Source: an uncultured virus (IMG/VR IMGVR_UViG_3300031281_000001)
Lineage: Duplodnaviria; Heunggongvirae; Uroviricota; Caudoviricetes
IMG/VR virus record: IMGVR_UViG_3300031281_000001
Strand: one strand, 5' to 3'
DNA: 64,000 nucleotides
The notes beneath the pieces were generated by a model, which worked only from the letters and a program-made list of their open reading frames with translations, did not search any database and was not told the origin of the DNA. The position numbers and the translations under genes are program-made. Positions 2,439 to 59,876 of this stretch are shown one piece after another. How positions within the stretch are numbered: position 1 is the first letter of the stretch; each line of letters opens with the position of its first letter.

Positions 2439-3087
2439 GATCCAAAGCGATGTTTTTGATTGCGATCGACTTTACCAAAGCCTGTTCCTCAGGAGTGAGC
2501 AATTTGATAGAAGCTTCGAGCTTCTTGGAAATGTCTACTTGTACATGAGCCTCTATTTCTGTACGATTTGTATCAGACCACGACTCTCTAAATCGATTCT
2601 TCAAGTAGAAAATGATTGCATTGACGTCAGGTGGAATGTGTTTTGTTACTACCCGTTTGAGGGTTTGAATGTTTCCTTGCCGGTCGATGTGTTGTGAAAT
2701 TTCCATTTCGTTGAAGTTGTATCCCAGGCAGCGTTGTCCGAGAGTTTCCCCGATCTTCATTCCAAACAACATGTGCCCTTCGAGCCAAGCTTCCCGAAAG
2801 TCTGGATTAGTGGCTTTCCAATCTTCGACAGTGTCGAGATGCACAGCAAAGAAGTCAGCAATGTCGGAATCCCTCGCACCCAAACGAGCAAGATAATATG
2901 CCTGCCGATAAAATTCATTTTTAAACTTGGTGGGAGTTCCTCTTTTTTTAGCAATTTCAGTACTCATCTTTTCTTTGAAAAGCTCTTCGAGGAAGTCAGC
3001 CGGGGACATTCCATCAGTCCCTTCAGCTATTGGCGATGTATTTGTTACATCTTTTACCCTTTCTATTACTTTTCCCCGTCTTTTCAT
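2419..3087 (-). CDS. terS: Terminase small subunit (HTH)
   Basis: Directly upstream of terL; HTH-like GARDSDIADFFAV..TVEDW and KHIPPDVNAIIFYLKNR. Confidence 0.8.
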   Translation of the reverse strand: MKRRGKVIERVKDVTNTSPIAEGTDGMSPADFLEELFKEKMSTEIAKKRGTPTKFKNEFYRQAYYLARLGARDSDIADFFAVHLDTVEDWKATNPDFREAWLEGHMLFGMKIGETLGQRCLGYNFNEMEISQHIDRQGNIQTLKRVVTKHIPPDVNAIIFYLKNRFRESWSDTNRTEIEAHVQVDISKKLEASIKLLTPEEQALVKSIAIKNIALDHGISGN

Positions 3088-4816: not shown

Positions 4817-5203
4817 TTTTGCTTTTATAAAAAGCAACCTTTGTGCCCGCTAGTGTTCATTCGCTAGCGGGTTTTCGTGGTAGAAAACGTTCCGTTTTTG
4901 CCGTAAATGCTTTGCGATTTTACGTTTAAAATAGCTTTGCCCAAGTATGCGTTTTAAAAAAATAAGTGAATTTACCATACCCAAAATGGATTTTGCTTAT
5001 TTTATTGGAATAATTATGCTTTCATGTAAAAAAATAGTGTTTTTCATAGTTTGGTTTTCCGGCTAGTATTTATTTGCTAGCGGGTTTTTACCAAAAACAT
5101 GTAAAAAAGTTTGCCCGAAAAATTCCTTTTACAAAAAAGGGTTCAAATTTTGGCCTGGAATTGGTGTACAAAATTGTATAATATACACAAAAACAATACA
5201 TTA

Positions 5204-7823: not shown

Positions 7824-8036
7824 ATGAAAGAACATAAAAAAGTAAATTTCTACATCCCCGAAGGGATTACAGGAAAACAGTTTGAAAAGTTTTTACAGCG
7901 TTCCCGCTTACATTTCTTCTTTCCACGAAAGAAAGAAGTAGATCCTACCAAAGAAAACCTAATCAAAAAAGGGATTCGTAATACAATACTTATGAATAAG
8001 TACAATAACAATTTACTAACTAAAATTGAAAAATAA
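7824..8036 (+). CDS. Hypothetical protein
   Basis: ORF co-oriented in the operon. Confidence 0.55.
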   Translation: MKEHKKVNFYIPEGITGKQFEKFLQRSRLHFFFPRKKEVDPTKENLIKKGIRNTILMNKYNNNLLTKIEK

Positions 8037-8191: not shown

Positions 8192-8752
8192 ATGAAAAAA
8201 ATAAATAACAATTGGGTTGACGATAACAATAACAGATGGGATTGTAATCTGTGTACAGAAGATCATGCACAAAAATATAGTGATTCATTAGTTAATTGCA
8301 GTTATTGCAGTGATTGCAGTTATTGCAGGAATTGCAGTGATTGCAGTTATTGCAGGAATTGCAGTGATTGCAGTTATTGCAGTGATTGCAGTTATTGCAG
8401 GAATTGCAGTTATTGCAGTGATTGCAGTGATTGCAGGAATTGCAGTGATTGCAGTGATTGCAGTGATTGCAGTTATTGCAGGAATTGCAGTTATTGCAGT
8501 TATTGCAGGAATTGCAGAAATTGCAGTGATTTTAAAGAAAACCCAGAACAAATAACTTCCTCAAAAATTGGAAGTAGAAATTCTCAAACGACAATTTACT
8601 GGACAAAAGAAAGAGAATTAGTCGTTTGTGACTGTTTTGAAGGAAATGTTGAAGAATTTAAACAAAGAGTAATTAATACGCATAGAAATAATGAGTATGC
8701 AAAGCAATATTTTAAATTTATTGAAAAAGTAAAAAAATATAGAGAAGAATGA
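8192..8752 (+). CDS. Cys-rich tripeptide repeat protein
   Basis: About 26 CSY/CSD/CRN repeats followed by an IGSR..TT..CDCFEG..EF..RV..TH C-terminal domain. Confidence 0.8.
   Translation: MKKINNNWVDDNNNRWDCNLCTEDHAQKYSDSLVNCSYCSDCSYCRNCSDCSYCRNCSDCSYCSDCSYCRNCSYCSDCSDCRNCSDCSDCSDCSYCRNCSYCSYCRNCRNCSDFKENPEQITSSKIGSRNSQTTIYWTKERELVVCDCFEGNVEEFKQRVINTHRNNEYAKQYFKFIEKVKKYREE
8295..8531 (+). repeat. 9-bp tandem repeat (TGCAGTTAT / TGCAGTGAT / TGCAGGAAT)
   Basis: Directly visible in the sequence. Confidence 0.95.
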
Positions 8753-16853: not shown

Positions 16854-17708
16854 ATGAAAGATACTAAACAAGAAAAACACGTACTTTTAGCCAATCCTTA
16901 TGACGAACCAATGGTAATATCTAACCAATTGGTTGATAGCCTAAGAAAAGAAGAAAAACATGAGGATTTGTTAGCTCTATATACTTTCTATTATGGAATG
17001 ACTAAAAAGCAACAAACAACTCAAATTTGGGCTACTACATCTTTTGCAGCAAAAGGAATGAAGTGGACAGAAGAAAGAGTGAGGAAAACGAAAAGAAAAT
17101 TAAAAGAATTATGGCTCATTGAAGACTTACAAGGCAAGAAAGAAGATGGGTCATTTGGAAAAAGGTATATTCGAGTTTTTTATCGTATTGATACCCAGCG
17201 TACCTCGGATTCACCGTACTACGGTGAAAACCGTACTACGGTAGAGCATGAACTGAAATGCTTGAATACAGAAAATAAGATAAATGCTTTTAAAATAAAG
17301 AGAAGAAATGCTTCATCTTCGTTTTCGAATGGATTTATTACCCAAGAAATGTTTGAGGACTTTTGGAAACTTTATCCAAGAAAAGGGCCTAAAGGAAAAG
17401 CCAAAAAAAAATGGATCGAACTATGTACCCAAAAAACTAAAGAAAGTATTCGTCCAAAATGGACGGAAATAAAAGATGCAATAAAAGCTCAAATTAAAAG
17501 TGAACAATGGCAGGAGGAACAATACATACCATTAGCAGCAACATGGTTGCATCAGACACGTTGGATAGATGATCCAAATGAATTGGTATCATATTCTAAA
17601 CGTGATGAAAGAAAAGAAAAATCATTTGTATCAAGTTATGATGAAGATATCGAAATTCCAGAAAAGTTCAGAAAAATACATGAGTATAATGAAAGAAATA
17701 GAAGATAG
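16854..17708 (+). CDS. Putative replication initiator / replisome organiser
   Basis: HTH-like N-terminus; FEDFWKLYPRK..K.KA...W and YIPLAATWL..RW.D C-terminal domain; upstream of dnaB. Confidence 0.75.
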   Translation: MKDTKQEKHVLLANPYDEPMVISNQLVDSLRKEEKHEDLLALYTFYYGMTKKQQTTQIWATTSFAAKGMKWTEERVRKTKRKLKELWLIEDLQGKKEDGSFGKRYIRVFYRIDTQRTSDSPYYGENRTTVEHELKCLNTENKINAFKIKRRNASSSFSNGFITQEMFEDFWKLYPRKGPKGKAKKKWIELCTQKTKESIRPKWTEIKDAIKAQIKSEQWQEEQYIPLAATWLHQTRWIDDPNELVSYSKRDERKEKSFVSSYDEDIEIPEKFRKIHEYNERNRR

Positions 17709-17710
17709 AT

Positions 17711-19276
17711 ATGAATGAAGATTTTGAAGAAAGAAAGATCATTATAGGTCTTGTAATGTCTACCGAATTTATCCAACGAATAAAGAACTTTTGGTCTATT
17801 CGTCTGATTGAAACGCCGGAAGCAAAACGGATTGCAATGTGGTGCATAGAATACTATGATAAATACAATGAAGCCCCAAAAAAAGAAATAGAAACAATAT
17901 ATTTTTCCAAAAAGAAAAAAGGGCTGCCCGAGGATGTTTGTGAATTGTTCGAAGATGTTTTGCTTCCAGGTTTGTCAGAGGAGTTCGTGGAAGATGGGGG
18001 CATCAATGTGGATTATCTTGTTGACGTTGCACGAAAATACTTTGGTAGGCGAAACCTTCAAACGCACATAGAAAAGTTAATGTCGCTTTTAGAAAAGGGA
18101 AATGTAACGGAAGCTGAAAAAGAAGCTAATTCTTACATGAAATTAGCCGAAGAGTCCAATCCGTGGATAGACCTTTCACATGAAAGCATATTTGACGTTA
18201 TACATCGTGCCTTTAACCGTACCAAGAAATGTTTGATTCCATTCGAGGGGGCAATAGGTGAATTTTGGAACAAACAACTATACAGGGGGGCGTTTGTTGC
18301 ATTGATGGGGCCTGAGAAACGAGGAAAGTCCTATTGGCTATTAGAATTTGCAATGCGTGCCCGAAGAAATAAAAAGAAAGTAGCATTGTTTCAAGCAGGG
18401 GACATGGATGATGAGGATCAGATAATGCGCATAGCCAATTATTTAACTCATAAATCAGAAGACGAAGACAATTCAGGAAAAATATACGAACCCACACTTG
18501 ATTGTATTTTAAATCAAACGGACTTTTGTGACAAAAGAGAACGAACGTGTGATCGTGGTATATTTAATCACAAAATAAAAAATGAAAAAGAAGCAATTAA
18601 GTTAAGAAAAACAATAGCATATCAGGAATTGATCGACGTAAGAAAAACAGCAAAAGGATATAAAACGTGTACAAATTGTGAAATGTTTAAAAAGAGTAAA
18701 TTTGGCACACCGTGGATAAGAAAAACGGATGTAGGCCCACCATTAACGGAAGAGGAAGCAAAAGAAGCATACGACGAATTTTTCGTTCAGTCTAAACGAT
18801 CCTTTCGCATTTCTACACATGCCAATGGAACACTTACGGTAAAAGAAATTGAAAATGTTCTTGGTATTTGGGAACGTGAAGGTTTTATTTCTGATGTAAT
18901 TATAATAGACTATGCAGATCTGTTGACAGAAGATTCACAAAAGGAAGAAAGACATCGTCAAAATAAAGTTTGGAAAGATCTCCGTGGCCTTTCACAAAAG
19001 AAACATGCGTTAATAATAACGGCTACGCAAACAGATGCTGCATCATATTCCAATGATCTTTTAACATTAGACAACTATTCAGAAGACAAACGTAAGTATG
19101 GACATGTAACGGCAATGTATGGATTGAACCAAGATCCATCTGGCAGGGAAAAAGAACTGGGTGTGATGCGCATCAATGAAATAATGTTGCGAAAGGGTAA
19201 ATTTAGCCTGAAGAATCAAGTACATGTTTTGCAAAATCTAACACGTGGAATCCCTTGCCTCACAAGCTATTATTAA
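17711..19276 (+). CDS. DnaB-like replicative helicase
   Basis: Walker A GPEKRGKS, IIIDYADLL and ITATQ. Confidence 0.85.
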   Translation: MNEDFEERKIIIGLVMSTEFIQRIKNFWSIRLIETPEAKRIAMWCIEYYDKYNEAPKKEIETIYFSKKKKGLPEDVCELFEDVLLPGLSEEFVEDGGINVDYLVDVARKYFGRRNLQTHIEKLMSLLEKGNVTEAEKEANSYMKLAEESNPWIDLSHESIFDVIHRAFNRTKKCLIPFEGAIGEFWNKQLYRGAFVALMGPEKRGKSYWLLEFAMRARRNKKKVALFQAGDMDDEDQIMRIANYLTHKSEDEDNSGKIYEPTLDCILNQTDFCDKRERTCDRGIFNHKIKNEKEAIKLRKTIAYQELIDVRKTAKGYKTCTNCEMFKKSKFGTPWIRKTDVGPPLTEEEAKEAYDEFFVQSKRSFRISTHANGTLTVKEIENVLGIWEREGFISDVIIIDYADLLTEDSQKEERHRQNKVWKDLRGLSQKKHALIITATQTDAASYSNDLLTLDNYSEDKRKYGHVTAMYGLNQDPSGREKELGVMRINEIMLRKGKFSLKNQVHVLQNLTRGIPCLTSYY

Positions 19277-19352
19277 AGTCATATTAAATACAAATAAAAT
19301 TATACTAATACGGCAATTAACTATACCACGTGTTATAAAACGTTTTTGAGCG

Positions 19353-19631
19353 ATGGAATTAAAAGAATTTGAAGTAAAAAGATTGACGAATGGTAGAGGA
19401 AACTCTCATTTAGTAGTAATAACCGAACCTGCAATAGAAGATATTAGCATTGGAAGTGTACTCATAGTGCCTTATGCAGATGGTTTTAAAGACCCTAAAA
19501 GCGTAATATTGCAAGTTGATGCAGTCGGTAAACCAAAAACTGCTAACGGCTACGCATATGCGGTCGTGGCCGAATACAAAGAACGAAATTATCAAACAGT
19601 AAATAACATTAGATATGAAACACGAAAGTAA
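19353..19631 (+). CDS. Cassette 1 hypothetical protein
   Basis: ORF reading through the first attC-like arm. Confidence 0.6.
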   Translation: MELKEFEVKRLTNGRGNSHLVVITEPAIEDISIGSVLIVPYADGFKDPKSVILQVDAVGKPKTANGYAYAVVAEYKERNYQTVNNIRYETRK

Positions 19632-20055
19632 CAATAACCCACAAACTAAGGCCATGCCGTATGATGCGATGTTAGTAGCTGGCCGTGAATATAGCATTGA
19701 ATTTGATGAGAACGATAACAACGGCAACCCGTGCGGTAGGGTTCATCAATGCATTATTGGTGATATGTACCTTGAGATAATGGATATGGATGGCACGAGA
19801 TTTAATACAGTTACCTATACTGGCAAGATAGGATTTGAAGTTGAAAACAAAATATTTCCAGCATTAACATTTAATCCCTGGGTTGACAATATGATTTGGA
19901 ACTCATATAAGCTTACAGAAGAAAATGCATTGATGTTGGTTAACCACTTAATTAAGAGCGGTAACTGGACTGTAAACGAAGCACCAACAGAACAGTATGA
20001 AAAATTTGCGGGCGGGCAAGCTTTTGATAAGAGCGACTTACAGGCTTGCTACTAA
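19615..20055 (+). CDS. Cassette 2 hypothetical protein
   Basis: Starts in the attC-like loop; its stop TAA is part of TAAC. Confidence 0.7.
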   Translation: MKHESNNNPQTKAMPYDAMLVAGREYSIEFDENDNNGNPCGRVHQCIIGDMYLEIMDMDGTRFNTVTYTGKIGFEVENKIFPALTFNPWVDNMIWNSYKLTEENALMLVNHLIKSGNWTVNEAPTEQYEKFAGGQAFDKSDLQACY

Positions 20056-20179
20056 CGTTTCGTGTATGAGCAGTGGCACTTGTACACACTTTCAAATTAG
20101 CACAAAACTATCCGTGCCATTGCTTATACACGGTGTTAGCCACAGTATTTTTTAGTAATAATTTTAAAAACAATATATT

Positions 20180-20578
20180 ATGGAAAAGATTTTAAGAATT
20201 GAAGAAACTAACTTCAAAACAAAAGAAAGAAGCTGGGGCGGTTATGATGGTTATCAAATAATAACTGACCAACAGACAATACAAATTGGAATTTCAGATG
20301 GACAATGTTGTTGTGAAAACTTTGGCTGTATAATCACAAACGATGAGACCAAAGAATTTATAGGAGCTGATTTACTCGGTATTTCAATTACTGATACTGC
20401 TTTAAACAACAAAAAGATTGAAGAAATTGAATACTTGGATTGTGGCGGTGCAATGTTTGTGAACTTAGAAACAAGTGAAGGACTTCTACAATTTGTAGCC
20501 TATAATTCTCACAACGGATATTACGGACATGAAGCGGTTTTAATTAGTAAACAACTTAACTGCGAAGAAGGTCTTTAA
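20180..20578 (+). CDS. Cassette 3 hypothetical phage protein
   Basis: QCCCE..G and YNSHNGYYGH motifs. Confidence 0.75.
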   Translation: MEKILRIEETNFKTKERSWGGYDGYQIITDQQTIQIGISDGQCCCENFGCIITNDETKEFIGADLLGISITDTALNNKKIEEIEYLDCGGAMFVNLETSEGLLQFVAYNSHNGYYGHEAVLISKQLNCEEGL

Positions 20579-20646
20579 TATTGTGGCTAACGTTGATGAT
20601 ATGCCCTGATGGGCGATAAATAGTAATAACTTTTAAATTTAGTACA

Positions 20647-20928
20647 ATGAATAAAGAACCGAAAATAGTTTCAAATTTTGACGAACACGCCCATTTGGGT
20701 ATATCTATTGTTAGTTGCCGTTTATTTGATTTGATGGCACTACAAAAAGAAGAATATCACAAATATACAACTCCGATTTATACAAAATTAGATGGAATGT
20801 ACGGATATATTTGTGTAAGTGGATATAAAGTGTTTTTCTTCTGGAATGATGTTCAAAGTGGAAATGTTAGTTGTGATGATGTTACAGAAAAATTCAGAAT
20901 TGAGTATGTTACCGAAAATGGCAACTAA
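20647..20928 (+). CDS. Cassette 4 hypothetical protein
   Basis: Starts in the attC-like loop; stop lies in TAAC. Confidence 0.65.
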   Translation: MNKEPKIVSNFDEHAHLGISIVSCRLFDLMALQKEEYHKYTTPIYTKLDGMYGYICVSGYKVFFFWNDVQSGNVSCDDVTEKFRIEYVTENGN

Positions 20929-21013
20929 CGGTTTTAATAAAAAATCGTTTTAATGTTTTTTATTTATTGTTGTGCTTTCGTTTTTGCGGGAGGGCAACAC
21001 AAACTTTAAGATT

Positions 21014-21202
21014 ATGAAAGCTGAATACTGGAAAGAAAGGATAAAAGAAATTGTAAGTAACAACGATGAAGAAAGTTTAACCCTACTTGCTAAACTAATT
21101 GAAGAAGCTGAACAGGCTAAACAAGAGTTGAGAAATAAAGGTTATGGATGGACTGGATTAAGCTTATTAAAAACAGTTATTGAAGAAGTGCCGAGTGCGT
21201 AG
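21014..21202 (+). CDS. Cassette 5 hypothetical protein
   Basis: ATG at 21014 (MKAEYWK). Confidence 0.6.
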   Translation: MKAEYWKERIKEIVSNNDEESLTLLAKLIEEAEQAKQELRNKGYGWTGLSLLKTVIEEVPSA

Positions 21203-21350
21203 GCAAATGAAGCACAACGATGGTAATATGAAATGGCTGGGATTCGGAGCTACTAACCTATCCCACGCCACAAAACTAACAGGTAGCAAGCTGGCTAAAA
21301 AGTCCGATAACACCCAGCTATTTTATATTATGTGTTAGCGGTAGTTAATT

Positions 21351-21755
21351 ATGTATAAACAATATGTTGTTAAAATTAAACAGTGTGCAAGTTGTGTTTA
21401 TAATAAATGCACAAAAATAAACACACCAATATATAACGAAGAAATTCAAGAAATGCAAGATTTTAGTTATGTGGCAATATGCTCTAAATTAAAAATTGAA
21501 TTAAATGATACTAGCATTATCCCAAATAACTGCCCACTTGATACTTGCAATGTTTATGAAATATGTGTGCATTTAGATGGGGTATCTGTAAATGAAAAAA
21601 GAAAGGTATTTGATGTGTTTAAAGAGGATTATGATGTGGAAATTTTAGATTACATAAGTATGCCAATTGCAAGTATTATTTTTATGTTGATTGATAAAAA
21701 AATTGAACTTCCTGAATATGCTGAATATGTTACTGGAAGGTTTAATTACCGCTAA
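21351..21755 (+). CDS. Cassette 6 hypothetical Cys-rich protein
   Basis: Stop lies in TAAC. Confidence 0.65.
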   Translation: MYKQYVVKIKQCASCVYNKCTKINTPIYNEEIQEMQDFSYVAICSKLKIELNDTSIIPNNCPLDTCNVYEICVHLDGVSVNEKRKVFDVFKEDYDVEILDYISMPIASIIFMLIDKKIELPEYAEYVTGRFNYR

Positions 21756-21815
21756 CGGATTGCGTATTGGCGTTGTTGCCTACTAGCTTAAAATTGAAAC
21801 AAAAATTTTGATGAT

Positions 21816-22082
21816 ATGAAAAAAGATAAATTGAAAAACGGAAGCAATAACGCTAATACGCTGTTATGTGCTGATAATTTTACGGGTTACTTCGATGATG
21901 CTAACAAACCAATTTTTGTTGGTGATAAATTAAGAAGTGAGTGGAATTATGAAATAATTGTAGTAAAAGACGAAGATGGTGATTATAGCGGAAAATTGGT
22001 TTGTGATAACAACCACAGTTGCAAAAACATTCCTTATGCCTTAAATAAGGGCAAAGGTTATAGTAAAATTATTTGTACATAA
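21816..22082 (+). CDS. Cassette 7 YopX-like fragment protein
   Basis: FTGYFDDANKPIFVGDKL resembles the YopX motif; starts in the attC-like loop; stop lies in TAAC. Confidence 0.6.
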   Translation: MKKDKLKNGSNNANTLLCADNFTGYFDDANKPIFVGDKLRSEWNYEIIVVKDEDGDYSGKLVCDNNHSCKNIPYALNKGKGYSKIICT

Positions 22083-22214
22083 CGTTGGTAATATGAAAAG
22101 TTGGCTTTGCCGTCGCTTTCAATTTACCACAGCAGCTTGATAGCCAATTTTTTATATTACGTGTTATCGGCTGCCTTTTATCAATCGAATTTTTAACCTT
22201 TAAATATAAACACA

Positions 22215-22595
22215 ATGAGTAAATACATAACAGAATTTCAGCAAACAGGAAACTCAATTGTAAATGTTGATTTGATTTGCAAAGAGTGGAATGATAGGTT
22301 CACAATTAGCACTTGGATTAATGACAAAGAAGAAAAATACACTTTTGTTGTAAATGGTAAACGCAAAAACACAAGACTTTGCAAAACTAAAATATCAAAA
22401 GACCAAGCGATGGATATTGTTTCAAAACTTGCTCTTATTCACGTAAAAGATAATACTTTCAGGAGTGGTGGAGCTTACCATTCTAAAAATTTTATAAAAT
22501 CAGAGGTTGAAAGAATAACTAAAATCAAACAAGAAAAGGAGCAGGAATTATCATTTATTAATCAGGCACTTTATATGTACGAACGCTGTCTTTAA
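22215..22595 (+). CDS. Cassette 8 hypothetical protein
   Basis: ORF bounded by inverted termini. Confidence 0.7.
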   Translation: MSKYITEFQQTGNSIVNVDLICKEWNDRFTISTWINDKEEKYTFVVNGKRKNTRLCKTKISKDQAMDIVSKLALIHVKDNTFRSGGAYHSKNFIKSEVERITKIKQEKEQELSFINQALYMYERCL

Positions 22596-22671
22596 GGTTG
22601 CCGATAACGGCAACTTGTAAGGCGTAGTTGCGCCAACAATTGAAATACAAAACTTTAAAATAATTACTAAG

Positions 22672-22947
22672 ATGACAAAAGAGAACGAACGTACCGAATT
22701 TGAAGCGCAATTCGCTTTACAAAATGTTAGCAACCGTGTTTTTTCTGACCATTTTTTACAGAAAACCACTAAGCTAACGTTGATTGAAAAAATAGTGTTG
22801 AAGTTTAAAAAGAAGCTGTTTTTTGTAGATGACCTTGAATTGATTACGATTGTTTATAAAAAATGGAGGGGTAAAACTTACATACTAAACAGCTACCATA
22901 ACCCACCAATGCACCCATTGTGTAGATGCTCATTACATGGTTGCTAA
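22672..22947 (+). CDS. Cassette 9 hypothetical protein
   Basis: Starts in the attC-like loop; stop lies in TAAC; ends PPMHPLCRC. Confidence 0.65.
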   Translation: MTKENERTEFEAQFALQNVSNRVFSDHFLQKTTKLTLIEKIVLKFKKKLFFVDDLELITIVYKKWRGKTYILNSYHNPPMHPLCRCSLHGC

Positions 22948-22961
22948 CTATTATATATTAA

Positions 22962-23321
22962 ATGAACTATATAAACATAAGTAAAATGAATACTTTTGAA
23001 CAATCAACTCTTAAAAAATTTGAAAATATTTTAAGGCAAAGAAATTACTCTGAAAGAACTATTCAGATATATTCATTTTATGTTTTAAAATATTATAAAT
23101 CAATAAATAAAGAAACATATCAATTAACTACTCGAGATTTAGTTAATTATTTATATAATTTTAATTATAGTTCTATAAGTCAACAAAATCAAGTTATAAA
23201 CGGATTAAAAGTATTTTACAAATACATCCTTAATAAATCTGATATTCATTTAAATAAAATTGAACGCCCACATAAAGAAAAACATTTACAAGATGTAGTA
23301 AAAAGATTTGAACCAATATAA
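22962..23321 (+). pseudogene. Truncated tyrosine recombinase (N-terminal SAM-like domain of integron-integrase/Xer type only)
   Basis: LRQRNYSERTIQIY...SISQQNQVINGLKVFYKYIL...IERP.KEKHL stops where the catalytic domain should begin; no R-H-R-Y residues. Confidence 0.75.
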
Positions 23322-23339
23322 TAATATTAAAAATAAAAA

Positions 23340-23828
23340 GTGATGCAAACATTTCTACCTTACCCAGATTTTTTGTATAGTGCCAGAGTTTTAGATAAGA
23401 AACGGTGCTGGAAACAAGTTGTAGAAGCTAAACAGATAATTTCAATATTATCTCATTTAGAAGAATGTCCAAAAGATAAGGTCCCCTGGGAAAAACATCC
23501 AGCAGTTAAAATGTGGGAAGGGCATATAGAATGCTTAAAACTTTATTATAATTTTTTTTTATTTGTTTCTAAGGATGTTCATAAGGTAAATACTACCTTG
23601 CCTTTATTTCAGGAGGTAGATGACAAATACCGAAATTGGGAGGGTATATATAAACCCTGGTGGTTAGGAAATAAAGATTTCCATCGTGCTATGCGGTCGA
23701 GATTAATAGAAAAGAATAGGGAATTTTACCTTCCATTGTTCCCAGATGATGAAGGATTTAATGATGGTTTATATCTTTGGCCTGACATGGAAACACGTAC
23801 GTTTAAAACAATTAAACCAAAAAAATAG
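23340..23828 (+). CDS. Pyrimidine-dimer DNA glycosylase / endonuclease V family-like protein
   Basis: MQTFLPY.DF..SA.VLD.KR..KQ.VEA.QI...HPAVKMWEG...PWWLG...FH...RSRL. Confidence 0.8.
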   Translation: MMQTFLPYPDFLYSARVLDKKRCWKQVVEAKQIISILSHLEECPKDKVPWEKHPAVKMWEGHIECLKLYYNFFLFVSKDVHKVNTTLPLFQEVDDKYRNWEGIYKPWWLGNKDFHRAMRSRLIEKNREFYLPLFPDDEGFNDGLYLWPDMETRTFKTIKPKK

Positions 23829-23902
23829 TACACATTCTTTTCAAAGTAAAATATATTAATATAATGATTTATAATTTTTTTAAATATTTTTTTAAATACA
23901 TA

Positions 23903-23934
23903 TTGCAAATTAAAAAAACAGGTATTATATTTAC
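23903..23934 (+). promoter_or_regulatory. Bacteroidota-type promoter
   Basis: TTG-N20-TATATTTAC in an intergenic gap. Confidence 0.6.
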
Positions 23935-23972
23935 AATTCAATTCAAAAATTTAACATTTAATTTTAAAAATT

Positions 23973-24872
23973 ATGGGTTTTACAAACAAAGAGCTGTTAA
24001 AGGCAGCAAAAGAACTGATCGAAAAACTCGATCTTTTAGACGACAATGGCGTAGATTCATTAACGATCCCAAAAAAAGCAGATGATGATTATCTTACTGA
24101 CTTCATAAAAGAAGCTACGGATCAAATGGGGCCTCAAGATGCTGAAATTGAATTTACTGATGAAACAAAAGAAATCATCGAAGAGTTGACCAAACCTAAA
24201 AAGAAAACCGTTAACGAAGTTGGTAAAAAAGAAGGTAGGAAAAAAGTTCTTCCTGAACCAGAAGAAGACGAAGATACGGAAGACGATGAGGATGATGATG
24301 AGGATGAAGACAACGATGATATTTTTGTTATGTTGGAAGAAATCCAAAATGCAAAGAAAATCAAAACATTGAAAGAAATAGTTGCTAACAATGGTGTTTT
24401 CAAAAAAAGTGCAAAAAAACTCAAAGCAATTACCGATATTGACGAACTTCGTGAAGAAATGATTGCCATAATTCAGCCAGAAGTAACTGAAGAAGATGCT
24501 GATGTGGATACAGACGATGATGATGATGGTGATGATGAAGTAACGGTAAAAGTAGATCCAAAGAAAAAGGAAAAGGCCAGTATCAAAAAAGAATCTGTTA
24601 AAGAAACAAAACAGAAAAAAGCAAAAAAAGAACCGAAAGAAAAAGCTTCGAGGAAAGAAGGACGTCAAAAATATGTTTTTGATGCCATTCGTTCCTTGTG
24701 TAAAAAAGGGGCTACTATGGAGCAAATAATGAAAGAAAGTGATGATTTGTGTGTTGAAGCTGGGGGAAATTCCAATCCTACAGCAACAAATGTAAACTCA
24801 TACACTTTGCAGGCTTTGGTTGCTTTCGATGTTTTAGAAAAAGATGGTAAGATTTACAAGTTCAAAAAGTAA
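23973..24872 (+). CDS. Acidic/basic low-complexity protein with a C-terminal domain paralogous to 6067-6483
   Basis: D/E tracts, a K-rich linker and the shared C-terminal domain. Confidence 0.75.
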   Translation: MGFTNKELLKAAKELIEKLDLLDDNGVDSLTIPKKADDDYLTDFIKEATDQMGPQDAEIEFTDETKEIIEELTKPKKKTVNEVGKKEGRKKVLPEPEEDEDTEDDEDDDEDEDNDDIFVMLEEIQNAKKIKTLKEIVANNGVFKKSAKKLKAITDIDELREEMIAIIQPEVTEEDADVDTDDDDDGDDEVTVKVDPKKKEKASIKKESVKETKQKKAKKEPKEKASRKEGRQKYVFDAIRSLCKKGATMEQIMKESDDLCVEAGGNSNPTATNVNSYTLQALVAFDVLEKDGKIYKFKK

Positions 24873-24874
24873 AC

Positions 24875-25927
24875 ATGAATAGGGCAAAACTTCCTAAAAA
24901 TGGTTTTGATTTTAAAGATAAAATTACCCCCGGTAAAGGTTTGCCGGGGCGTTTTATCTTTCCTCCTTTTACAGTGTTGAGGGCTACCGACGGTGAATGG
25001 AATGTTAGAAAACGACAATGGATATCACTTGGTATAAAAAGTGAGGTAGGTCGTGGTGGAAATCTTACTATTCGTGATCCTCAATTGAACGACTTTAATG
25101 TATATAAACATGGAAAGTATAAAAGAAAAGCAGCAACCACTTATAATATTGGTAACAAAACGGAATGGGAAAAAGGTCTTTTGCATAAAGGGAAAACAAT
25201 CAATACTTCAACTGAAAAATGGGATGGTGGTGAAAGTGCGTGGCAGAATAGTGGCACTTCCATTTTTGATCCTGTACTTTGTGAACTTATGTATTCTTGG
25301 TTTTGCCCAATCGAAGGACAAGTCATTGATCCTTTTGCTGGAGGATCCGTCAGGGGAATCGTTGCAACCTTCATGGGATATAAATACTGGGGTTCAGAAT
25401 TACGACAAGAACAAGTTGATGAAAATGTGCTTCAGGGAAAGTCGATTTGTAACGGCAAGGAACCAGTATGGATTTGCGGTGACTCATATGAATATGTGAA
25501 AGAAGCCCCACAATCAGACTTTTTATTTTCATGTCCACCATACGGAAATCTTGAAGTGTATTCAGAATTAGATGCTGATATAAGTAATATGAATTATGAT
25601 GCGTTCATAGACCGTTATACAATTATAATACGTCGTTTCGTGCGTCGTTTAAAAGAAAACCGCTTCGCCTGTTTTGTTGTAGGTAATTTTAGAGACAAAA
25701 AAACAGGAATATATCATAACTTTGTAGGGGATACTATAAAAGCATTTAAACTTGCTGGTATGAATTTCTACAATGACGCTATATTAATCACACCAACTGG
25801 TAGTTTGCCAGTTCGTGCTGGAAGACAATTCGATGCCAGCCGTAAATTAGGCAAAGCGCATCAAAATGTTTTGGTGTTTTACAAAGGAAACCCGAAGGAA
25901 ATTAATAATATATTTAACTATGAATAA
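24875..25927 (+). CDS. DNA N4/N6 methyltransferase
   Basis: IDPFAGG (motif I) and SCPPY (motif IV). Confidence 0.85.
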   Translation: MNRAKLPKNGFDFKDKITPGKGLPGRFIFPPFTVLRATDGEWNVRKRQWISLGIKSEVGRGGNLTIRDPQLNDFNVYKHGKYKRKAATTYNIGNKTEWEKGLLHKGKTINTSTEKWDGGESAWQNSGTSIFDPVLCELMYSWFCPIEGQVIDPFAGGSVRGIVATFMGYKYWGSELRQEQVDENVLQGKSICNGKEPVWICGDSYEYVKEAPQSDFLFSCPPYGNLEVYSELDADISNMNYDAFIDRYTIIIRRFVRRLKENRFACFVVGNFRDKKTGIYHNFVGDTIKAFKLAGMNFYNDAILITPTGSLPVRAGRQFDASRKLGKAHQNVLVFYKGNPKEINNIFNYE

Positions 25928-26558
25928 CATATTATCTTCCAACACCACGACGCGTAAGGTTATTTGTGGTAATTCTTTGAATTTATTAAATAATTACGAA
26001 AACGTCAAAGCTATAATTACAAGTTTGCCTGATATGGAAGAAATAGGCGAAACCAAAATTTATAAGTATCATCTGTGGTTGTTTGTAGCTTGCGAAAAAT
26101 TAAGAAATTCTATTGATGAAAATGGGGTTATTTTTTTCTATCAAACAAATAGAAAATATAAAGGAACATTAATTGATAAAAATAGTTTAATTACATCTCA
26201 ATTTATACCTTACGAATTTAACAAAGTATTTGAAAAAATAATATTGAGAAAAGAACCAGAAACAATTGATAGGTATCGGCCTACCTATACTACTTTAACA
26301 GCATTTTCCAAAACGTTAAAAGCCGGTCAACCCACACCAGATATTATACATAGAGGAAACATGATGTATAAAAACGCAATGGGGGAAAATGCAATAAAAG
26401 TATGTTTGGATTTTGTTAAGAAAAATGTAGAAACTGATACAATACTTGATCCCTTCTGCGGCAGAGGTTCGGTTTTACGTTTAGCAAACTTCTACGGATA
26501 TAATGCCATTGGAATTGATATCGATCCAAAACAATGTGAAATAGCAAAAAATATATGA
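25920..26558 (+). CDS. Second DNA methyltransferase-like protein
   Basis: ITSLPD (atypical motif IV) and LDPFCGRGS...GIDID (motif I). Confidence 0.75.
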   Translation: MNNILSSNTTTRKVICGNSLNLLNNYENVKAIITSLPDMEEIGETKIYKYHLWLFVACEKLRNSIDENGVIFFYQTNRKYKGTLIDKNSLITSQFIPYEFNKVFEKIILRKEPETIDRYRPTYTTLTAFSKTLKAGQPTPDIIHRGNMMYKNAMGENAIKVCLDFVKKNVETDTILDPFCGRGSVLRLANFYGYNAIGIDIDPKQCEIAKNI

Positions 26559-27019
26559 AAAAAATAAAATTAAATCAAAATTTTGTTGTTATTGTTGATA
26601 ACGATGATTATGATTATTTAATACAATTTGATTGGAAAGTTTTAAAAGCCAAATATACAAATTATGCTAGAAGATCCATTTGTAAAAATGGAAAAGTAAA
26701 AACTGTTTTGATGCACAGGGAAATAATGAACACCCCAAAAAATTTGTATGTTGATCATAAGGATCATAATGGTTTAAATAATCAAAAAAGTAATTTAAGA
26801 AATTGTACTAATTCGGAAAATTGTCACAACGTAAAACCTAGAGGAAAATCAAAATATTTAGGTGTGTATATTGATTATGATCAGTTCAAAGCTCAAATAT
26901 GTGTACATAGAAAAGTTATAAACTTAGGAAGATTCAATAATGAATTAGATGCTGCTAAAAAATATGATGAAGCAGCAAAAAAGTATTTTGGAAATTTTGC
27001 AAATTTAAATTTTAAATAA
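26555..27019 (+). CDS. HNH-AP2 homing endonuclease
   Basis: MHREIM...VDHKDHNGLNNQKSNLR plus an AP2 domain (SKYLGV...LGRF..E.DAA..YD.AA..YFG.FA.LNF). Confidence 0.92.
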   Translation: MKKIKLNQNFVVIVDNDDYDYLIQFDWKVLKAKYTNYARRSICKNGKVKTVLMHREIMNTPKNLYVDHKDHNGLNNQKSNLRNCTNSENCHNVKPRGKSKYLGVYIDYDQFKAQICVHRKVINLGRFNNELDAAKKYDEAAKKYFGNFANLNFK

Positions 27020-28369: not shown

Positions 28370-29662
28370 ATGCAAGGCTTTTTCACACGAAAAGAAACGG
28401 AATCTAAAACACGCCCAACAGGAAAGATACACTCCTGTTTTAGTTGTGGTTTGTATCGTGAAGTTACTACTCCAAAAATGAAACCTTTCGGAAATTTCAA
28501 GAAAGGAATTATGAATATAGGAGAAGCACCTGGAGAAGTAGAGGATGATCGTAGTAAACAATGGCAAGGGAAAGCTGGAAGAGTTCTAAAAAATATTTAT
28601 AAAGAACTTGGTATCGATCTTTTTGAAGATTGCATAAACATAAATGCTGTTAATTGTAGACCAATAGATGAAGTTGGTAAAAATGCAAAACCGACATCAC
28701 ATCAAATTGATTGTTGCAGAGATATGATGGTATTAAAAGCCATTAAACAATACAAACCAAAGGTGATAATACTTTTAGGTGAATCAGCCGTGACAAGTAT
28801 TATAGGGTATCGATGGAAGAAAAACCTGGGGGGAAATGAAAATGGGACAAGCAAAAAGTCTGGAATTATATCAAAATGGAGGGGTTGGGCAATTCCTGAT
28901 CAGGATTTTCAAACTTGGATTTGTCCTACGTTTCATCCATCATATGTAATACGGGAAGACAAACCTGAAATCGATACCATTTGGAAGCTTGATTTAGAAC
29001 AAGCATTCGAATACGTAAAGAAACCATTTCCGGTATGGAAAGAACCGAATATCGAAACGATAACGGACTTATCCATATTCGATAACCCTAAGTTCGGACG
29101 TTCCAAATATTTCGTAATGAACCAGGCGGTTTTAGACTTTGAAACTACAGGATTGAAACCACATGCAAAAGGTCACGAAATAATATGTGCAGCGATTGCG
29201 GATACAGAAGATCATGCCTATGCTTTTATGATGCCTAAAACACGTCGTGAACTTCGTCCATTCTTGAATTTTCTAAAGAATGAAAAAATTGCAAAAGTAG
29301 CTCAAAACATGAAGTATGAGCATACATGGGCCAAAGTTTTGTTGCGGTGTGAAATAAAACCTTGGGCATGGGATACAATGCAGGCTACACACATTCAAGA
29401 CAATCGTTCAGGTGTAACCGGATTGAAATTTCAAAACTATGTTACATTTGGTATTGTTGATTATGATTCAGAAATAGCACCTTATTTGAGATGTAAAGAT
29501 GAATCAAGTGCAAACAACATAAATCGTATCCACGAACTTTTAAAATTACCAGGAGGTAAGGAAAAACTTTTGAAATATTGTGGATGGGATGCAGTAATTG
29601 AAAGTCGTTTATCTATACTACAACGTAAATTATTTGAACCAAAATTAGGAGGTAAAAAATGA
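28370..29662 (+). CDS. DNA polymerase subunit: uracil-DNA glycosylase (family 4-like) plus 3'-5' exonuclease
   Basis: CFSC, IGEAPG..ED, NAVNCRP and TFHPSY, followed by exonuclease motifs DFETTG, QNMKYE and YCGWDA. Confidence 0.88.
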   Translation: MQGFFTRKETESKTRPTGKIHSCFSCGLYREVTTPKMKPFGNFKKGIMNIGEAPGEVEDDRSKQWQGKAGRVLKNIYKELGIDLFEDCININAVNCRPIDEVGKNAKPTSHQIDCCRDMMVLKAIKQYKPKVIILLGESAVTSIIGYRWKKNLGGNENGTSKKSGIISKWRGWAIPDQDFQTWICPTFHPSYVIREDKPEIDTIWKLDLEQAFEYVKKPFPVWKEPNIETITDLSIFDNPKFGRSKYFVMNQAVLDFETTGLKPHAKGHEIICAAIADTEDHAYAFMMPKTRRELRPFLNFLKNEKIAKVAQNMKYEHTWAKVLLRCEIKPWAWDTMQATHIQDNRSGVTGLKFQNYVTFGIVDYDSEIAPYLRCKDESSANNINRIHELLKLPGGKEKLLKYCGWDAVIESRLSILQRKLFEPKLGGKK

Positions 29663-30198
29663 AAAGAATATCAACAGTTCCTTTTATTGATTTAATTGAT
29701 TTAAAAATGATAAAAGGATTGGAAAATATAAAACGAGCATGTGAAATTGCTGTGGTTGGACATCATTCCATAGCAATAGTAACAGTTAAAGGTTTTGGAT
29801 TTTCTATGTTACAAAAAGCATATCACAACATAGATAGTGAAGTATGTATTCAAGAATATGAACAAGAAAAACGTGATAATTATGACATTGTTGTTGAAAT
29901 GCAACGTGAACCTTTTGAAAAATATTTTTCAGATTTGTGTGAAAATTCTTTTGTAGTTCAGGAAAGAATAGCAAAAGCAAAAAATTTTATGCTTGGTAAA
30001 GAACCTTTATCTATGAATTTAGATAATCAATCAAAAGCTTTATTAAAAAATGCCTTTGAAAAATTATATTTATCGTTCAAAGATATTAATGGGATACTAC
30101 AAATTTCGCGAACAATAGCAACATTAGATTGTGAAGAACACATAAAAGGAATCCACATAGCTGAGGCAATAATGTATAAAAATTATAAAAATGATTGA
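29659..30198 (+). CDS. Internally deleted ComM/YifB (Mg-chelatase-like) protein
   Basis: N-terminal DL..IKG.ENIKRACEIA..G.H and C-terminal LS...ILQISRTIA.LD...I...HIAEAI.Y; no Walker A or B. Confidence 0.7.
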   Translation: MKRISTVPFIDLIDLKMIKGLENIKRACEIAVVGHHSIAIVTVKGFGFSMLQKAYHNIDSEVCIQEYEQEKRDNYDIVVEMQREPFEKYFSDLCENSFVVQERIAKAKNFMLGKEPLSMNLDNQSKALLKNAFEKLYLSFKDINGILQISRTIATLDCEEHIKGIHIAEAIMYKNYKND

Positions 30199-31687
30199 AC
30201 TACATCCAAATTCGTATCAAGCTTATGCATTAATGCACGAAGGTGTTCTCGCGCTTGCACGTGCAGAAATGCAGGGATTTCGTGTAGATGTAGATTACGT
30301 ATTTAGAAAAAAAGAACACCTTAAACGTAAAATTGTACGATTAGAAGAAAAATTCAAAGATACTGATTTTTACAAGGGATGGGAAAAAGCAATGAGGGGA
30401 AAGAAAGTAAATATAAATTCTCCTACACAACTTGGTCATTACCTGTATAACGTGATGGGGATAGAACCCGTGAAATATACTGAAGGTGGAAAGGCTGGAG
30501 GGAATAAAAAAGGGGCAACGGATGAAGAGGCTTTGAAACAACTGGACATACCCGAACTGAATATTCTTTTAGAAAAAGGCAAAATAAAAAAAACGATTGA
30601 TGTTTTAGAGGGGTTTTATAATGAACAGATAGATGGATTCATACATCCTTTTTATAACTTACACACAGTCAGAACATTTCGTTCAAGTAGTGATAGCCCA
30701 AATTTCCAGAACACACCAAAAAGAGACGAGGAACAAATGAAAATTTGCCGTCGTGCTATATTTCCACGTTTAGGTCATCAATTGATGGAAATTGACTTTG
30801 GGCAATTGGAAGTTCGTATAAGTGCATGTTATAACAAAGATGAGAAATTGATAAATGATATACTTCATGGTGATATGCACGCTGATATGGCTACTGAAAT
30901 ATTTATGATTGATGCTATAGAAACAAAATTAAATAGTCAAAATAAAGTAACAAAAAGTGGGCATAAGAATTTACGCCAGGCAGCAAAAAATGGTTTTGTG
31001 TTTCCTCAATTCTATGGTGACTATTATAAGAATTGTGTTCAAAACATAGCAATGAACTGGTGTAAATTACCACAAGGCAAATGGTCGTATGGTCAGGGAA
31101 TCGTAATTGATGAGATAGGAAAATCGTTCAGACAATATCATATTTCTGATCATTTAATTTCCAAAGGAATTAAAGAATATGGTAAGATTGTAAGAACGGA
31201 AATGGGTACGAAAGTAACTGGGTTTTTAAGGCATGTTCAAAAAATAGAGAATTCATTTTGGAATCAACGATATACACAATACAGAGATTGGAAAGAGGTA
31301 CACTTCGAAGAATATCAAAAACGTGGTTATATTGATACATTAACAGGTTTTAGGTGTTCAGGTGTAATGAGAAAGAATGACGTGAGCAATTATCCAGTGC
31401 AAGGTGCTGCATTCCATTGTTTGTTGTGGTCTTTGATACAAACCGATAAATTTATTTATGAACTTGCAAAGCTTGACACGAGAATTATTGGGCAGATTCA
31501 TGACTCTTTAATTCTTGATGTTAATCCAAATGAACTTGAACTCGTTGCAAAAACAATACACAGAATAACCACTAAGGATTTACTTGAGCATTGGAACTGG
31601 ATTATTCTTCCATTGGAAGTTGGTGTCGATTTATTTCAAGTAGATGGTTCATGGGTTGATAAAGTTGAAGAATTTAAATTAAATTGA
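30191..31687 (+). CDS. polA: Family A DNA polymerase, polymerase domain
   Basis: RSSSDSPNFQN, motif A EIDFGQLEVR, motif B RQAAK..FVFPQFYG, NYPVQG and motif C QIHDS. Confidence 0.93.
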   Translation: MIELHPNSYQAYALMHEGVLALARAEMQGFRVDVDYVFRKKEHLKRKIVRLEEKFKDTDFYKGWEKAMRGKKVNINSPTQLGHYLYNVMGIEPVKYTEGGKAGGNKKGATDEEALKQLDIPELNILLEKGKIKKTIDVLEGFYNEQIDGFIHPFYNLHTVRTFRSSSDSPNFQNTPKRDEEQMKICRRAIFPRLGHQLMEIDFGQLEVRISACYNKDEKLINDILHGDMHADMATEIFMIDAIETKLNSQNKVTKSGHKNLRQAAKNGFVFPQFYGDYYKNCVQNIAMNWCKLPQGKWSYGQGIVIDEIGKSFRQYHISDHLISKGIKEYGKIVRTEMGTKVTGFLRHVQKIENSFWNQRYTQYRDWKEVHFEEYQKRGYIDTLTGFRCSGVMRKNDVSNYPVQGAAFHCLLWSLIQTDKFIYELAKLDTRIIGQIHDSLILDVNPNELELVAKTIHRITTKDLLEHWNWIILPLEVGVDLFQVDGSWVDKVEEFKLN

Positions 31688-52629: not shown

Positions 52630-53316
52630 TTATTCTCCTTTCTTTCTTTGAGGACTATTTTGTAATAAAGACTCCGCTAATGCAACTACATTACTATTCC
52701 AAGATAACCCAACCCATTTGAGTAATTCATGTATTTGACAATAGTCACCATACACCATACGTTCAGGCCAAATTACTTTACAATTTAAACCACTTTCAAT
52801 CATTTCAATGAATAATTTTTCATGTTGATGAACCCACCACAACCATCCGTCATTTTCCGAATCAGCCCCTACAGCCTTTTGATTTACTTTTAATTTAAAT
52901 GTATCCATATACGCCGTTTTCATGCACGAAGAAATAATATCACCCGTACGTCTACGAACTATAACATATTTAGCATTTGGAAAAGCACAACTCCAAACGG
53001 GCCATACTTGCGCAATTCGTGAACTTTTATATAACCATGTAACATCACTGTATAGTTGTATTCTCAATTTGACTTCCTTAGCCCAATTAACAGGAATTAA
53101 AAGTTCTTTAGTATCTGGAAGTGGGTAACGACCATTTTTATCAACATGCAAATCTGAATAGTATTTATCTACCAAGTTCTTAACTTGATCATTTTCCATC
53201 ATTTCACTCGTTCGCCCCGTGTATGCCCCGCACATTTGCAAAATTCTTGCAATAATAGAACTTCCTGATCGTTCTATTCCTGTAACAAAAATCGGTGAAT
53301 CAATTACATTCATCAT
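52630..53316 (-). CDS. Sulfotransferase-family protein
   Basis: PIFVTGIERSGSS (PAPS-binding loop-like) and FPNAKYVIVRR...DI.SS. Confidence 0.7.
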   Translation of the reverse strand: MMNVIDSPIFVTGIERSGSSIIARILQMCGAYTGRTSEMMENDQVKNLVDKYYSDLHVDKNGRYPLPDTKELLIPVNWAKEVKLRIQLYSDVTWLYKSSRIAQVWPVWSCAFPNAKYVIVRRRTGDIISSCMKTAYMDTFKLKVNQKAVGADSENDGWLWWVHQHEKLFIEMIESGLNCKVIWPERMVYGDYCQIHELLKWVGLSWNSNVVALAESLLQNSPQRKKGE

Positions 53317-59873: not shown

Positions 59874-59876
59874 ACA

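Follow-up and report, generated by a model that had tools for sequence, protein, structure and literature searches.

In the present study, we analysed a stretch of 64,000 nucleotides (nt) from an uncultured tailed virus (IMG/VR record IMGVR_UViG_3300031281_000001), which is called the window here at its full length, and found that positions 19545-23321 very probably form an integron-like gene-cassette platform on a phage of Bacteroidota (Flavobacteria-type) hosts. In the platform, an array of eight attC-like hairpins closes with a single TGCTAAC box (19545-22948) and is followed by the remnant of a tyrosine recombinase gene, and the cassette open reading frames (ORFs) share the plus strand with this remnant. 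The evidence is computational and comes from the anatomy of the array, the rule that sets its boundaries, the junction at its end, the co-occurrence and orientation of the recombinase in relatives, the breakpoints of cassette gain and loss, and the absence of the insertion specific to the integron integrase IntI.

In the mechanism that we propose, a XerA-like tyrosine recombinase, normally of 269 amino acids (aa), would carry out recombination between folded hairpins and a docking site, TAAC/TAYTATATATAAA (the slash marks the junction), which would sit just upstream of the recombinase's own gene. The sense strand of the cassette genes would be the one that folds best and is cut at 5'-AA/C, so that a cassette would consist of a hairpin followed by its gene. 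The genes would point to the docking site and the integrase, and newcomers would enter beside the integrase. The recombinase would probably catalyse these cassette events itself, single-stranded folded DNA would be its likely substrate, and excised circles would be expected to exist. Transcription of the array would come by read-through from upstream phage promoters and not from an integron Pc promoter. In the window, mobility of the array would require an enzyme acting in trans or some other kind of recombination.

Results

Each site has the form xxxxAAC, spacer, stem, loop, stem, spacer, GTTxxxx, and the eight sites are spread across 19545-22728 (Table 1). They display the attC-type features of an imperfect palindrome, AAC and GTT cores, an unpaired spacer and a variable loop. 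In all eight adjacent pairs, the 7-mer of the 3' box (R') is the exact reverse complement of the next 5' box (R''), the last link ending on the lone TGCTAAC at 22942-22948, whereas an exact 7-mer match was found in only 1 of 64 non-adjacent pairs. The adjacent boxes extend to inverted repeats of 7-10 nt (9 nt between h0 and h1), while complementarity between R'' and R' of the same site spans 3-5 nt only. Furthermore, 10 shuffles of the window did not produce even a chain of two sites. This chain rule is the signature of cassettes that are cut and rejoined at a fixed core; being symmetric, it does not tell by itself which core is used.

Five of the sites have arms of 18-19 nt that are 83-89% complementary, and in five of five window hairpins the energy of the plus-strand fold was below that of the minus strand, with z scores down to -4.42. 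That lowest value belongs to h4 (-3.19 on the minus strand), and h2 gave -2.93 against -1.67. In h1, whose 19-nt arms are 89% complementary, the plus strand folded at -18.8 kcal/mol (z -3.93) against -16.3 on the minus strand. The fold of h0 combines R-box pairing with a stem of ~18 bp and a large loop, and the site scan gave h6 a stem of ~11 bp, its minimum-energy fold favouring local hairpins. The short h2b falls into the 40-49-nt size class, to which 23 of 221 family sites belong.

At the integrase-side end of the array, GGTTGCTAAC (22939-22948) is followed by TATTATATATT (22949-22959), and this end, TAAC/TATTATATATT, lies 37 nt ahead of the co-oriented tyrosine recombinase gene. The original prediction, made from the letters of this DNA alone, had described here the end of the last cassette, a hairpin-less segment and an integrase-like gene on the same strand, and the letters, the ORF strand and a PF13495 match all agree with that description. 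Its further claim of an attI-like end gained support when the upstream flanks of the integrase homologues were compared. In relatives, 5' of the integrase ATG, a variable sequence with TAAC at its end gives way to the conserved TAYTATATATAAA; a regular expression found this junction in 19 of 21 loci, and the remaining two are variants by eye. The docking junction is also written TAAC/TATTATATATAAA, and its counterpart in the Polaribacter phage Freya is AAC/ACCCC. The distance from AAC to ATG is 39-40 nt in one subgroup (window included) and 54-55 nt in another. In addition, the 17-mer TAACTATTATATATWAA is present in single copy in the window (22945-22961), and its exact copies in 9 of 168 loci stand every time just 5' of the integrase. 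No conserved structure was found after the last AAC (RNAalifold, 0 pairs in 18 homologous junction regions), and the window's own fold of 22939-23060 was unremarkable (z -1.47). A junction that is conserved and has no conserved fold fits an attI-like docking site, of which this is the expected look, and such a function is predicted for it. A hairpin over the 5' end of the integrase gene (22982-23000 with 23062-23080) was a separate candidate and was rejected as unconserved (0 pairs in 18 sequences).

Full-length homologue loci were found on 80 viral contigs, and one metagenome scan returned at least 548 stretches matching recombinase relatives. The loci from these viral and metagenome scans did not include the 68-kb contig of P0001, the closest full-length homologue. 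The site scanner required a 10-bp stem and an exact 7-mer link between neighbours; a first chain scan without the stem requirement was dropped, because shuffles gave chains of up to 18. When 30 loci (482 kb) were shuffled as a control, 13 chains had two sites and none was longer. The chains of the relatives reached 16-17 sites (loci L029 and L043) and ended just before the integrase. An upstream array (at least three sites ending less than 1.5 kb from the integrase start) was present in 36 of the 58 loci with more than 2 kb of upstream sequence, and a downstream array in 1 of the 72 with more than 2 kb downstream. The integrase homologues do carry adjacent arrays, on their 5' side. Furthermore, the longer ORF is co-oriented with the integrase and reads towards the junction in 176 of 185 units, with a median of 97 aa.

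The gains and losses of cassettes end at the AAC of 5' boxes, which supports that each hairpin belongs to, and travels with, its downstream gene. The integrase-side end of the array is itself a 5' box without a hairpin, which fits a crossover at AAC and misfits one at the 3' GTT. In run X2, an independent sample (runs X2 and X3 cover the stretch patchily), a contig of 677 nt joins 20051 to 20587 and skips 535 nt. The joint has 8 ambiguous letters, CTAACGTT, which are the two 5' boxes, and the skipped DNA is exactly cassette 2 (h1 and the ORF 20180-20578), h2 being kept. Classical polarity would predict the opposite outcome, with h1 retained and h2 lost. In addition, a cassette common to L014 and L029 (86% over 451 nt) has homology from the upstream AAC to the downstream AAC. 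Its upstream hairpin is kept (81% identity, 114 vs 118 nt), whereas the downstream hairpins are of different size classes (122 vs 88 nt).

The Polaribacter phages Freya_1 to Freya_10 carry an integrase with 37% identity to the window family. They are 99.4-100% identical over the compared part and differ by 0-12 small genes directly upstream of this integrase. The scanner, tuned on the window family, catches the Freya array partly, and the Freya breakpoint sites were read by eye. The junction is GTTTAC, AAC and ACCCC in succession in Freya_1 and Freya_2, TTACCAAC/ACCCC in Freya_5 and TTTACCAAC/ACCCC in Freya_9; AAC is the only sequence that the junctions read have in common with the docking side. 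In Freya_6, a different block is inserted exactly between ACCAAC and the conserved ACCCC. By length comparison, Freya_8 is shorter than Freya_10 by exactly 902 nt, the interval between two 5' boxes. The block gained between Freya_1 and Freya_2 opens with a hairpin, the loop of which holds the annotated start of the next gene. The crossover proposed earlier at the minus-strand GTT (22946-22948), which is the AAC of the 5' box, is borne out by these breakpoints in X2, L014/L029 and Freya; ownership of the hairpin by the downstream gene is what X2 and the L014/L029 pair display, rather than co-segregation with the upstream gene; and the Freya_6 block sits where new cassettes had been said to enter, beside the integrase. 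As a separate observation, Freya_10 (L083 ~4930-5000; record ~48850-48920) holds a self-folding 60-nt unit without an ORF, bounded by GTTGTAAAC and GTTTACAAC, and this unit resembles an "empty" cassette.

The stems of 221 family sites hold 377 G.T pairs against 98 A.C pairs, the scanner having scored both alike. G.T is tolerated when the plus strand folds and A.C when the minus strand folds, so the excess of G.T points to the sense strand as the strand selected to fold. Folding of the sense strand would match a crossover at 5'-AA/C, by analogy with the bottom strand of a classical attC. The unpaired spacer of these sites is longer on the 5' arm (~5 nt) than on the 3' arm (1-2 nt). With each cassette ORF counted from its first start codon, 73 of 176 start within the hairpin upstream of them.

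The wobble bias could equally reflect an RNA role, as it is also expected from selection on the sense RNA. Together with the ORFs that start within the upstream hairpin, it suits an explanation in which the hairpins are mainly RNA-level elements on the sense transcript, serving processing, stability or translation start, and their likeness to recombination sites is secondary. We consider this the least probable of the alternatives, with very little weight; it leaves the chain rule, the docking junction and the DNA breakpoints at AAC unexplained, and no Rfam family matches the hairpins. In the Rfam search of 3000-42000, the matches were at chance level only, and the best one over a hairpin was WsnRNA46 (E 0.22), whose 27 bits are below its gathering score of 65.3. 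The hairpins may have a dual role at the DNA and RNA levels.

A cluster of attC sites lacking an integrase (CALIN) is defined by at least two attC sites and the lack of a functional integron integrase close by; the window, with eight attC-like sites and an integrase remnant only, may come under this definition. A CALIN of classical polarity, coming from a bacterial integron, would have each hairpin with its upstream gene, a 3' G/TT crossover and, as its neighbour, an unrelated remnant of a lysogeny integrase. Phage CALINs have been published, and IntI1 was shown to recombine one attC from the Polaribacter phage P12002L (PMC9892861). Furthermore, stop codons are provided by the TAAC of the 5' box (its TAA), a feature of many classical cassettes, and the symmetric chain rule suits either polarity. 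We regard this origin as very improbable all the same, since the array ends in a lone hairpin-less 5' box by the junction conserved in 19 of 21 loci, arrays lie 5' of the recombinase family in 36 of 58 loci and 3' of it in 1 of 72, the X2 deletion takes h1 and leaves h2, the Freya indels break at 5' boxes, and the count of G.T over A.C favours the sense strand.

Among bacterial Bacteroidota, loci L089, L091 and L096 have the phage-type layout. L097, L106, L109 and L121 have a recombinase-first layout, with the array downstream and the ORFs co-oriented; their recombinases are 44-51% identical to the homologue P0001, and the polarity of their sites is opposite, with more A.C than G.T pairs and with the 3' spacer as the longer one. 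The positions are 10046-14635 in L106, 10411-15537 in L121, 13300-16304 in L097 and 14460-15903 in L109, and the contigs come from Croceivirga radicis, Ilyomonas, Lishizhenia and one metagenome-assembled genome.

The recombinase ORF of the window spans 22962-23321 on the plus strand, and the start of the homologues corresponds to the in-frame ATG 22986. In Pfam, this ORF matches PF13495 alone (integrase N-terminal SAM-like, E 1.2e-11). It is colinear with the 269-aa homologues to about residue 103, over which its identity to P0001, P0003 and P0009, the closest three, is 70-74%. Beyond this point it diverges, and its stop at 23321 lies 18 nt ahead of the pyrimidine-dimer glycosylase gene. The integrase-like gene of the original prediction is present and co-oriented, but it is a mere N-terminal remnant of 111 aa without the catalytic domain. 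In the Polaribacter phage Danklef_1 (L085), the annotated "integrase" at 7861-7992 has just 132 nt, and a minus-strand gene lies directly before it. Danklef_1 is a second phage that keeps an array with a decayed recombinase.

The protein search gave 23 full-length homologues of 241-269 aa, with PF13495 and PF00589. Their best NCBIfam model was NF040815 (XerA_Arch), at 187.2 bits under a cut-off of 220, and the cut-offs of the other Xer families were not reached either (XerC, 147 against 335; XerD, 146.9 against 330). The IntI model TIGR02249 scored 141.6 bits against a cut-off of 265, in two stretches, and PRK15417 scored 93.8 against 435. The best solved relative was the Pyrococcus XerA-like protein 4a8e (E 1.6e-38), and the alignment to Vibrio IntI4 (2a3v) breaks where the query has 33 residues and IntI4 has 81. 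The IntI score below the cut-off and this gap indicate that the recombinase family is not IntI. Whether the homologues have the IntI-specific I2 insertion had been raised earlier as a question and not as a claim; from the TIGR02249 score and the IntI4 alignment, the insertion is absent.

The cargo scan took 147 ORFs from relatives, one of which was the integrase itself and was left out. A Pfam family (E <=1e-5) was found in 12 of the 146 cassette ORFs. Six of these 12 are DNA-modification enzymes (five methyltransferases and one Mom), and the further ones include ADP-ribosyltransferase, GNAT acetyltransferase and YopX. Among the window cassettes, only cassette 2 has a Pfam family.

Table 1. 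Positions of the hairpin sites, cassettes and neighbouring features in the window
Feature	Position	Strand	Boxes, ORF and basis
h0 (distal-most site)	19545-19673	+	R'' TGCTAAC, R' GTTAGTA; ORF 19615-20055 starts in loop
h1	20054-20137	+	R'' TACTAAC, R' GTTAGCC; chain rule holds
h2	20589-20712	+	R'' GGCTAAC, R' GTTAGTT; ATG 20647 in loop; chain rule holds
h2b (short, ~45-nt class)	20927-20971	+	R'' AACTAAC, R' GTTGTGC; chain rule holds on both sides
h3	21216-21336	+	R'' GCACAAC, R' GTTAGCG; 18-nt arms, 89% complementary; chain rule holds
h4	21754-21865	+	R'' CGCTAAC, R' GTTATGT; ATG 21816 in loop; chain rule holds
h5	22081-22165	+	R'' ACATAAC, R' GTTATCG; chain rule holds
h6	22606-22728	+	R'' CGATAAC, R' GTTAGCA; ATG 22672 in loop; chain rule holds on both sides
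Cassette 1	19547-20055	+	h0 and ORF 19615-20055; chain-rule boundaries
Cassette 2 (535 nt)	20056-20590	+	h1 and ORF 20180-20578 (DUF7448); missing in run X2 contig
Cassette 3	20591-20928	+	h2 and ORF 20647-20928; chain-rule boundaries
Cassette 4	20929-21217	+	h2b and ORF 20972-21202; chain-rule boundaries
Cassette 5	21218-21755	+	h3 and ORF 21351-21755; chain-rule boundaries
Cassette 6	21756-22082	+	h4 and ORF 21816-22082; chain-rule boundaries
Cassette 7	22083-22607	+	h5 and ORF 22215-22595; chain-rule boundaries
Cassette 8 (adjoins attI-like end)	22608-22947	+	h6 and ORF 22672-22947; chain-rule boundaries
Terminal lone box and attI-like segment	22942-22961	+	R'' TGCTAAC and conserved TATTATATATTAA; proposed crossover AA/C, 22947/22948
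Truncated tyrosine recombinase (111 aa)	22986-23321	+	Core-binding/SAM-like domain only; PF13495, homologue alignment
Terminase subunits	903-3087	-	PHROGs/Pfam

Genomic context

The genes identified with PHROGs and Pfam mark the window as a tailed-phage genome. The minus strand carries, besides the terminase subunits, the structural genes for the tape measure, tail tube and major head protein. The plus-strand replication and recombination module encodes an SNF2 helicase, a replication initiator, a DnaB-like helicase, a clamp, a split family-A polymerase, a UvsX/RecA-like protein and an SbcC-like protein. The replicon is a virulent-looking phage. No nucleotide relative of 17001-25000 was found in INPHARED (50,697 deposited phage records), the sole match being 158 nt over the Pyr_excise gene in two 735-kb uncultured phage records. 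The sequencing runs that contain this marine phage are salt-marsh metagenomes. In one run X2 contig of depth 2, 23336, at the end of the integrase remnant, is joined to 18570 (the DnaB-like gene) after 31 other letters, and a helicase gene lies downstream of the integrase in L003 and L035; a relative with such a helicase-downstream order may therefore co-occur in the X2 sample.

Several other features were observed in the window. Just 3' of the glycosylase gene, a 299-aa ORF (23973-24872) has extreme Asp/Glu/Lys runs and matches no Pfam or PHROGs family. An N6_N4 DNA methylase is divided between two ORFs that overlap (24875-25927 and 25866-26558), and an HNH/AP2 endonuclease ORF comes after it (within 24875-27019). 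The family-A polymerase is in pieces across 28370-31687, as an ORF with uracil-DNA glycosylase and 3'-5' exonuclease, an Mg-chelatase-like ORF and the polymerase domain. On the minus strand, a sugar-modification block of ~9 kb (52630-61435) lies between the tail and head genes and contains a sulfotransferase, two GT2 and one GT11 glycosyltransferases, an NAD-dependent epimerase/dehydratase, and FkbM-type and other methyltransferases. In addition, plant and animal microRNA-precursor models match 8307-8500 (best MIR7526, 43 bits, E 6e-06, far under the gathering score), which points to a long hairpin-forming sequence inside the ORF 8192-8752.

Discussion

Several observations weigh against a cassette platform of the kind proposed here. 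Some of the per-site folds are weak (z -1.19 for h5, -0.56 for h0 and -0.71 for h2b), and the expected long stem is unused in the minimum-energy folds of h3 and h6. The longer unpaired spacer lies on the 5' arm of the folding strand, and canonical attC bottom strands have their extra bases on the other arm; the structural code of the hairpins is thus not that of IntI. As the window integrase is truncated and no second integrase was found among the 91 window ORFs scanned, recombination activity in cis is not expected in the window, and with the catalytic domain lost the eight-cassette array is a relic in cis. Under the strict scanner, 22 of 58 loci have no chain of three or more; L007, L010 and L017, which were scanner-negative, have short arrays by eye, with the last box still matching the terminal box. 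Shared cassettes are rare, with one informative nucleotide-level pair among 293 units and the rest identical duplicate contigs, and the protein-level pairs are mixed, the upstream hairpin being more similar in 6 of 9 and the downstream one in 3 of 9. Finally, the X2 deletion has an 8-nt microhomology, and slippage or short-homology recombination could also yield it.

These 8 nt shared at the X2 joint suit an explanation in which the hairpins are repeats that shuffle genes by homologous or short-homology recombination or by slippage, in the manner of PeSL and without a dedicated site-specific recombinase. PeSL shuffling and mini-circles are documented in T4-type phages (PMC2839356), and both the window and Danklef_1 retain arrays despite truncated integrases. 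Such shuffling seems to us quite improbable, given that Freya joins its 5' box to the non-homologous ACCCC with AAC alone in common, that exact inverted repeats of 7-10 nt flank every unit, and that the association with one recombinase family and one docking sequence is strict. Furthermore, the hairpins have no promoter or terminator signal: promoter-like sites numbered 18 against 23.7 expected from shuffles, with none at the hairpins, and terminator-like sites 1 against 2.1, the one not being at a hairpin.

The integron-like platform was also compared with known systems. Like classical integrons, for which the canonical features were taken from PMC8946536, the phage loci have arrays of mostly one-gene units between imperfect palindromes with AAC/GTT cores and variable loops, a 3' box complementary to the 5' box of the next site, and a hairpin-less docking site beside the 5' end of the recombinase gene, at which gains and losses occur. 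Unlike integrons, they have a phage recombinase that is without the IntI insertion and does not reach the cut-offs of the IntI models, and their cassette genes point towards the docking site and integrase (176 of 185), whereas integron cassettes point away. The sense strand is the better folder in the phage sites, while the bottom strand is the recombinogenic one in integrons. In addition, the phage hairpin precedes its gene and often holds the start codon, and the replicon is a virulent-looking phage. In "inverted integrase" integrons such as the one of Treponema denticola, integrase and cassettes are on one strand, with the integrase upstream and classical attC polarity. The window differs from this type in that its integrase is downstream and its cassettes are reversed relative to the site.

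The nearest published systems are the phage CALINs (Qi et al 2023) and the Bacteroidales rAID-1 (Ross 2019). In virulent phages, a Polaribacter phage among them, Qi et al described clusters of attC sites that have no integrase, and IntI1 was able to recombine some of these sites (PMC9892861). These clusters resemble ours in having attC-type sites between small phage genes and DNA methyltransferases in the cargo; in the portion of that paper considered, a dedicated recombinase, a docking site and a reversed polarity are not described, and the sites are taken as parts of bacterial integrons. rAID-1 has a 5' XerD-like recombinase followed by at least two co-directional low-GC genes (Ross et al, bioRxiv 10.1101/471110). 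It also sets a tyrosine recombinase by co-oriented accessory genes, and its intergenic repeats are called "reminiscent of integrons". In rAID-1, however, the recombinase is 5' of the array, whereas it is 3' in the window and 36 of 58 relatives; the rAID-1 cargo consists of immunity genes. By layout, the recombinase-first bacterial loci L097, L106, L109 and L121 resemble rAID-1 as described there. The PeSL of T4-type phages are promoter-plus-terminator units that are recombined by homology (Arbiol et al 2010, PMC2839356). They likewise place stem-loops between small non-essential phage genes, with modular shuffling and mini-circles there, but the hairpins described here have no sigma-70 promoter or terminator signal and have a boundary rule and an associated recombinase.

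In the previous study of Bartlau et al (2021, PMC8776804), integrases were annotated in Freya, Danklef, Leef and Ingeline and were read as a possible sign of a temperate lifestyle. The main text of that paper contains none of the terms cassette, hairpin and "variable region". In the literature that we searched, which had subscription journals outside its scope, no account was found of phage cassettes that have a non-IntI recombinase of their own and a reversed polarity.

Conclusion

On balance, we lean towards the view that Flavobacteria-type phages run their own integron analogue, with a compact Xer-like recombinase, capture through the sense strand, and accessory genes that are swapped beside the recombinase gene. 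Gene capture of the integron type is thought to need IntI and its special insertion. Integrons have been reported as rare in Bacteroidetes (PMC9024848). If our interpretation is true, cassette recombination on folded DNA has evolved or diversified beyond IntI, and the compact recombinase with its site would be a pair usable for engineering. The cultured Polaribacter phages of the Freya series make the idea of a cassette recombinase directly testable. The recombination site would also lie within the coding and translation-start region, many cassette genes starting in the hairpin. Furthermore, the "integrase" of these phage families, which is taken to signal lysogeny, would be a cassette recombinase, and this would change how such genes are interpreted in lifestyle prediction. 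The hypervariable early-gene regions of a large group of marine and freshwater phages would also be explained, and these phages would stockpile and swap accessory genes, including anti-restriction methyltransferases.

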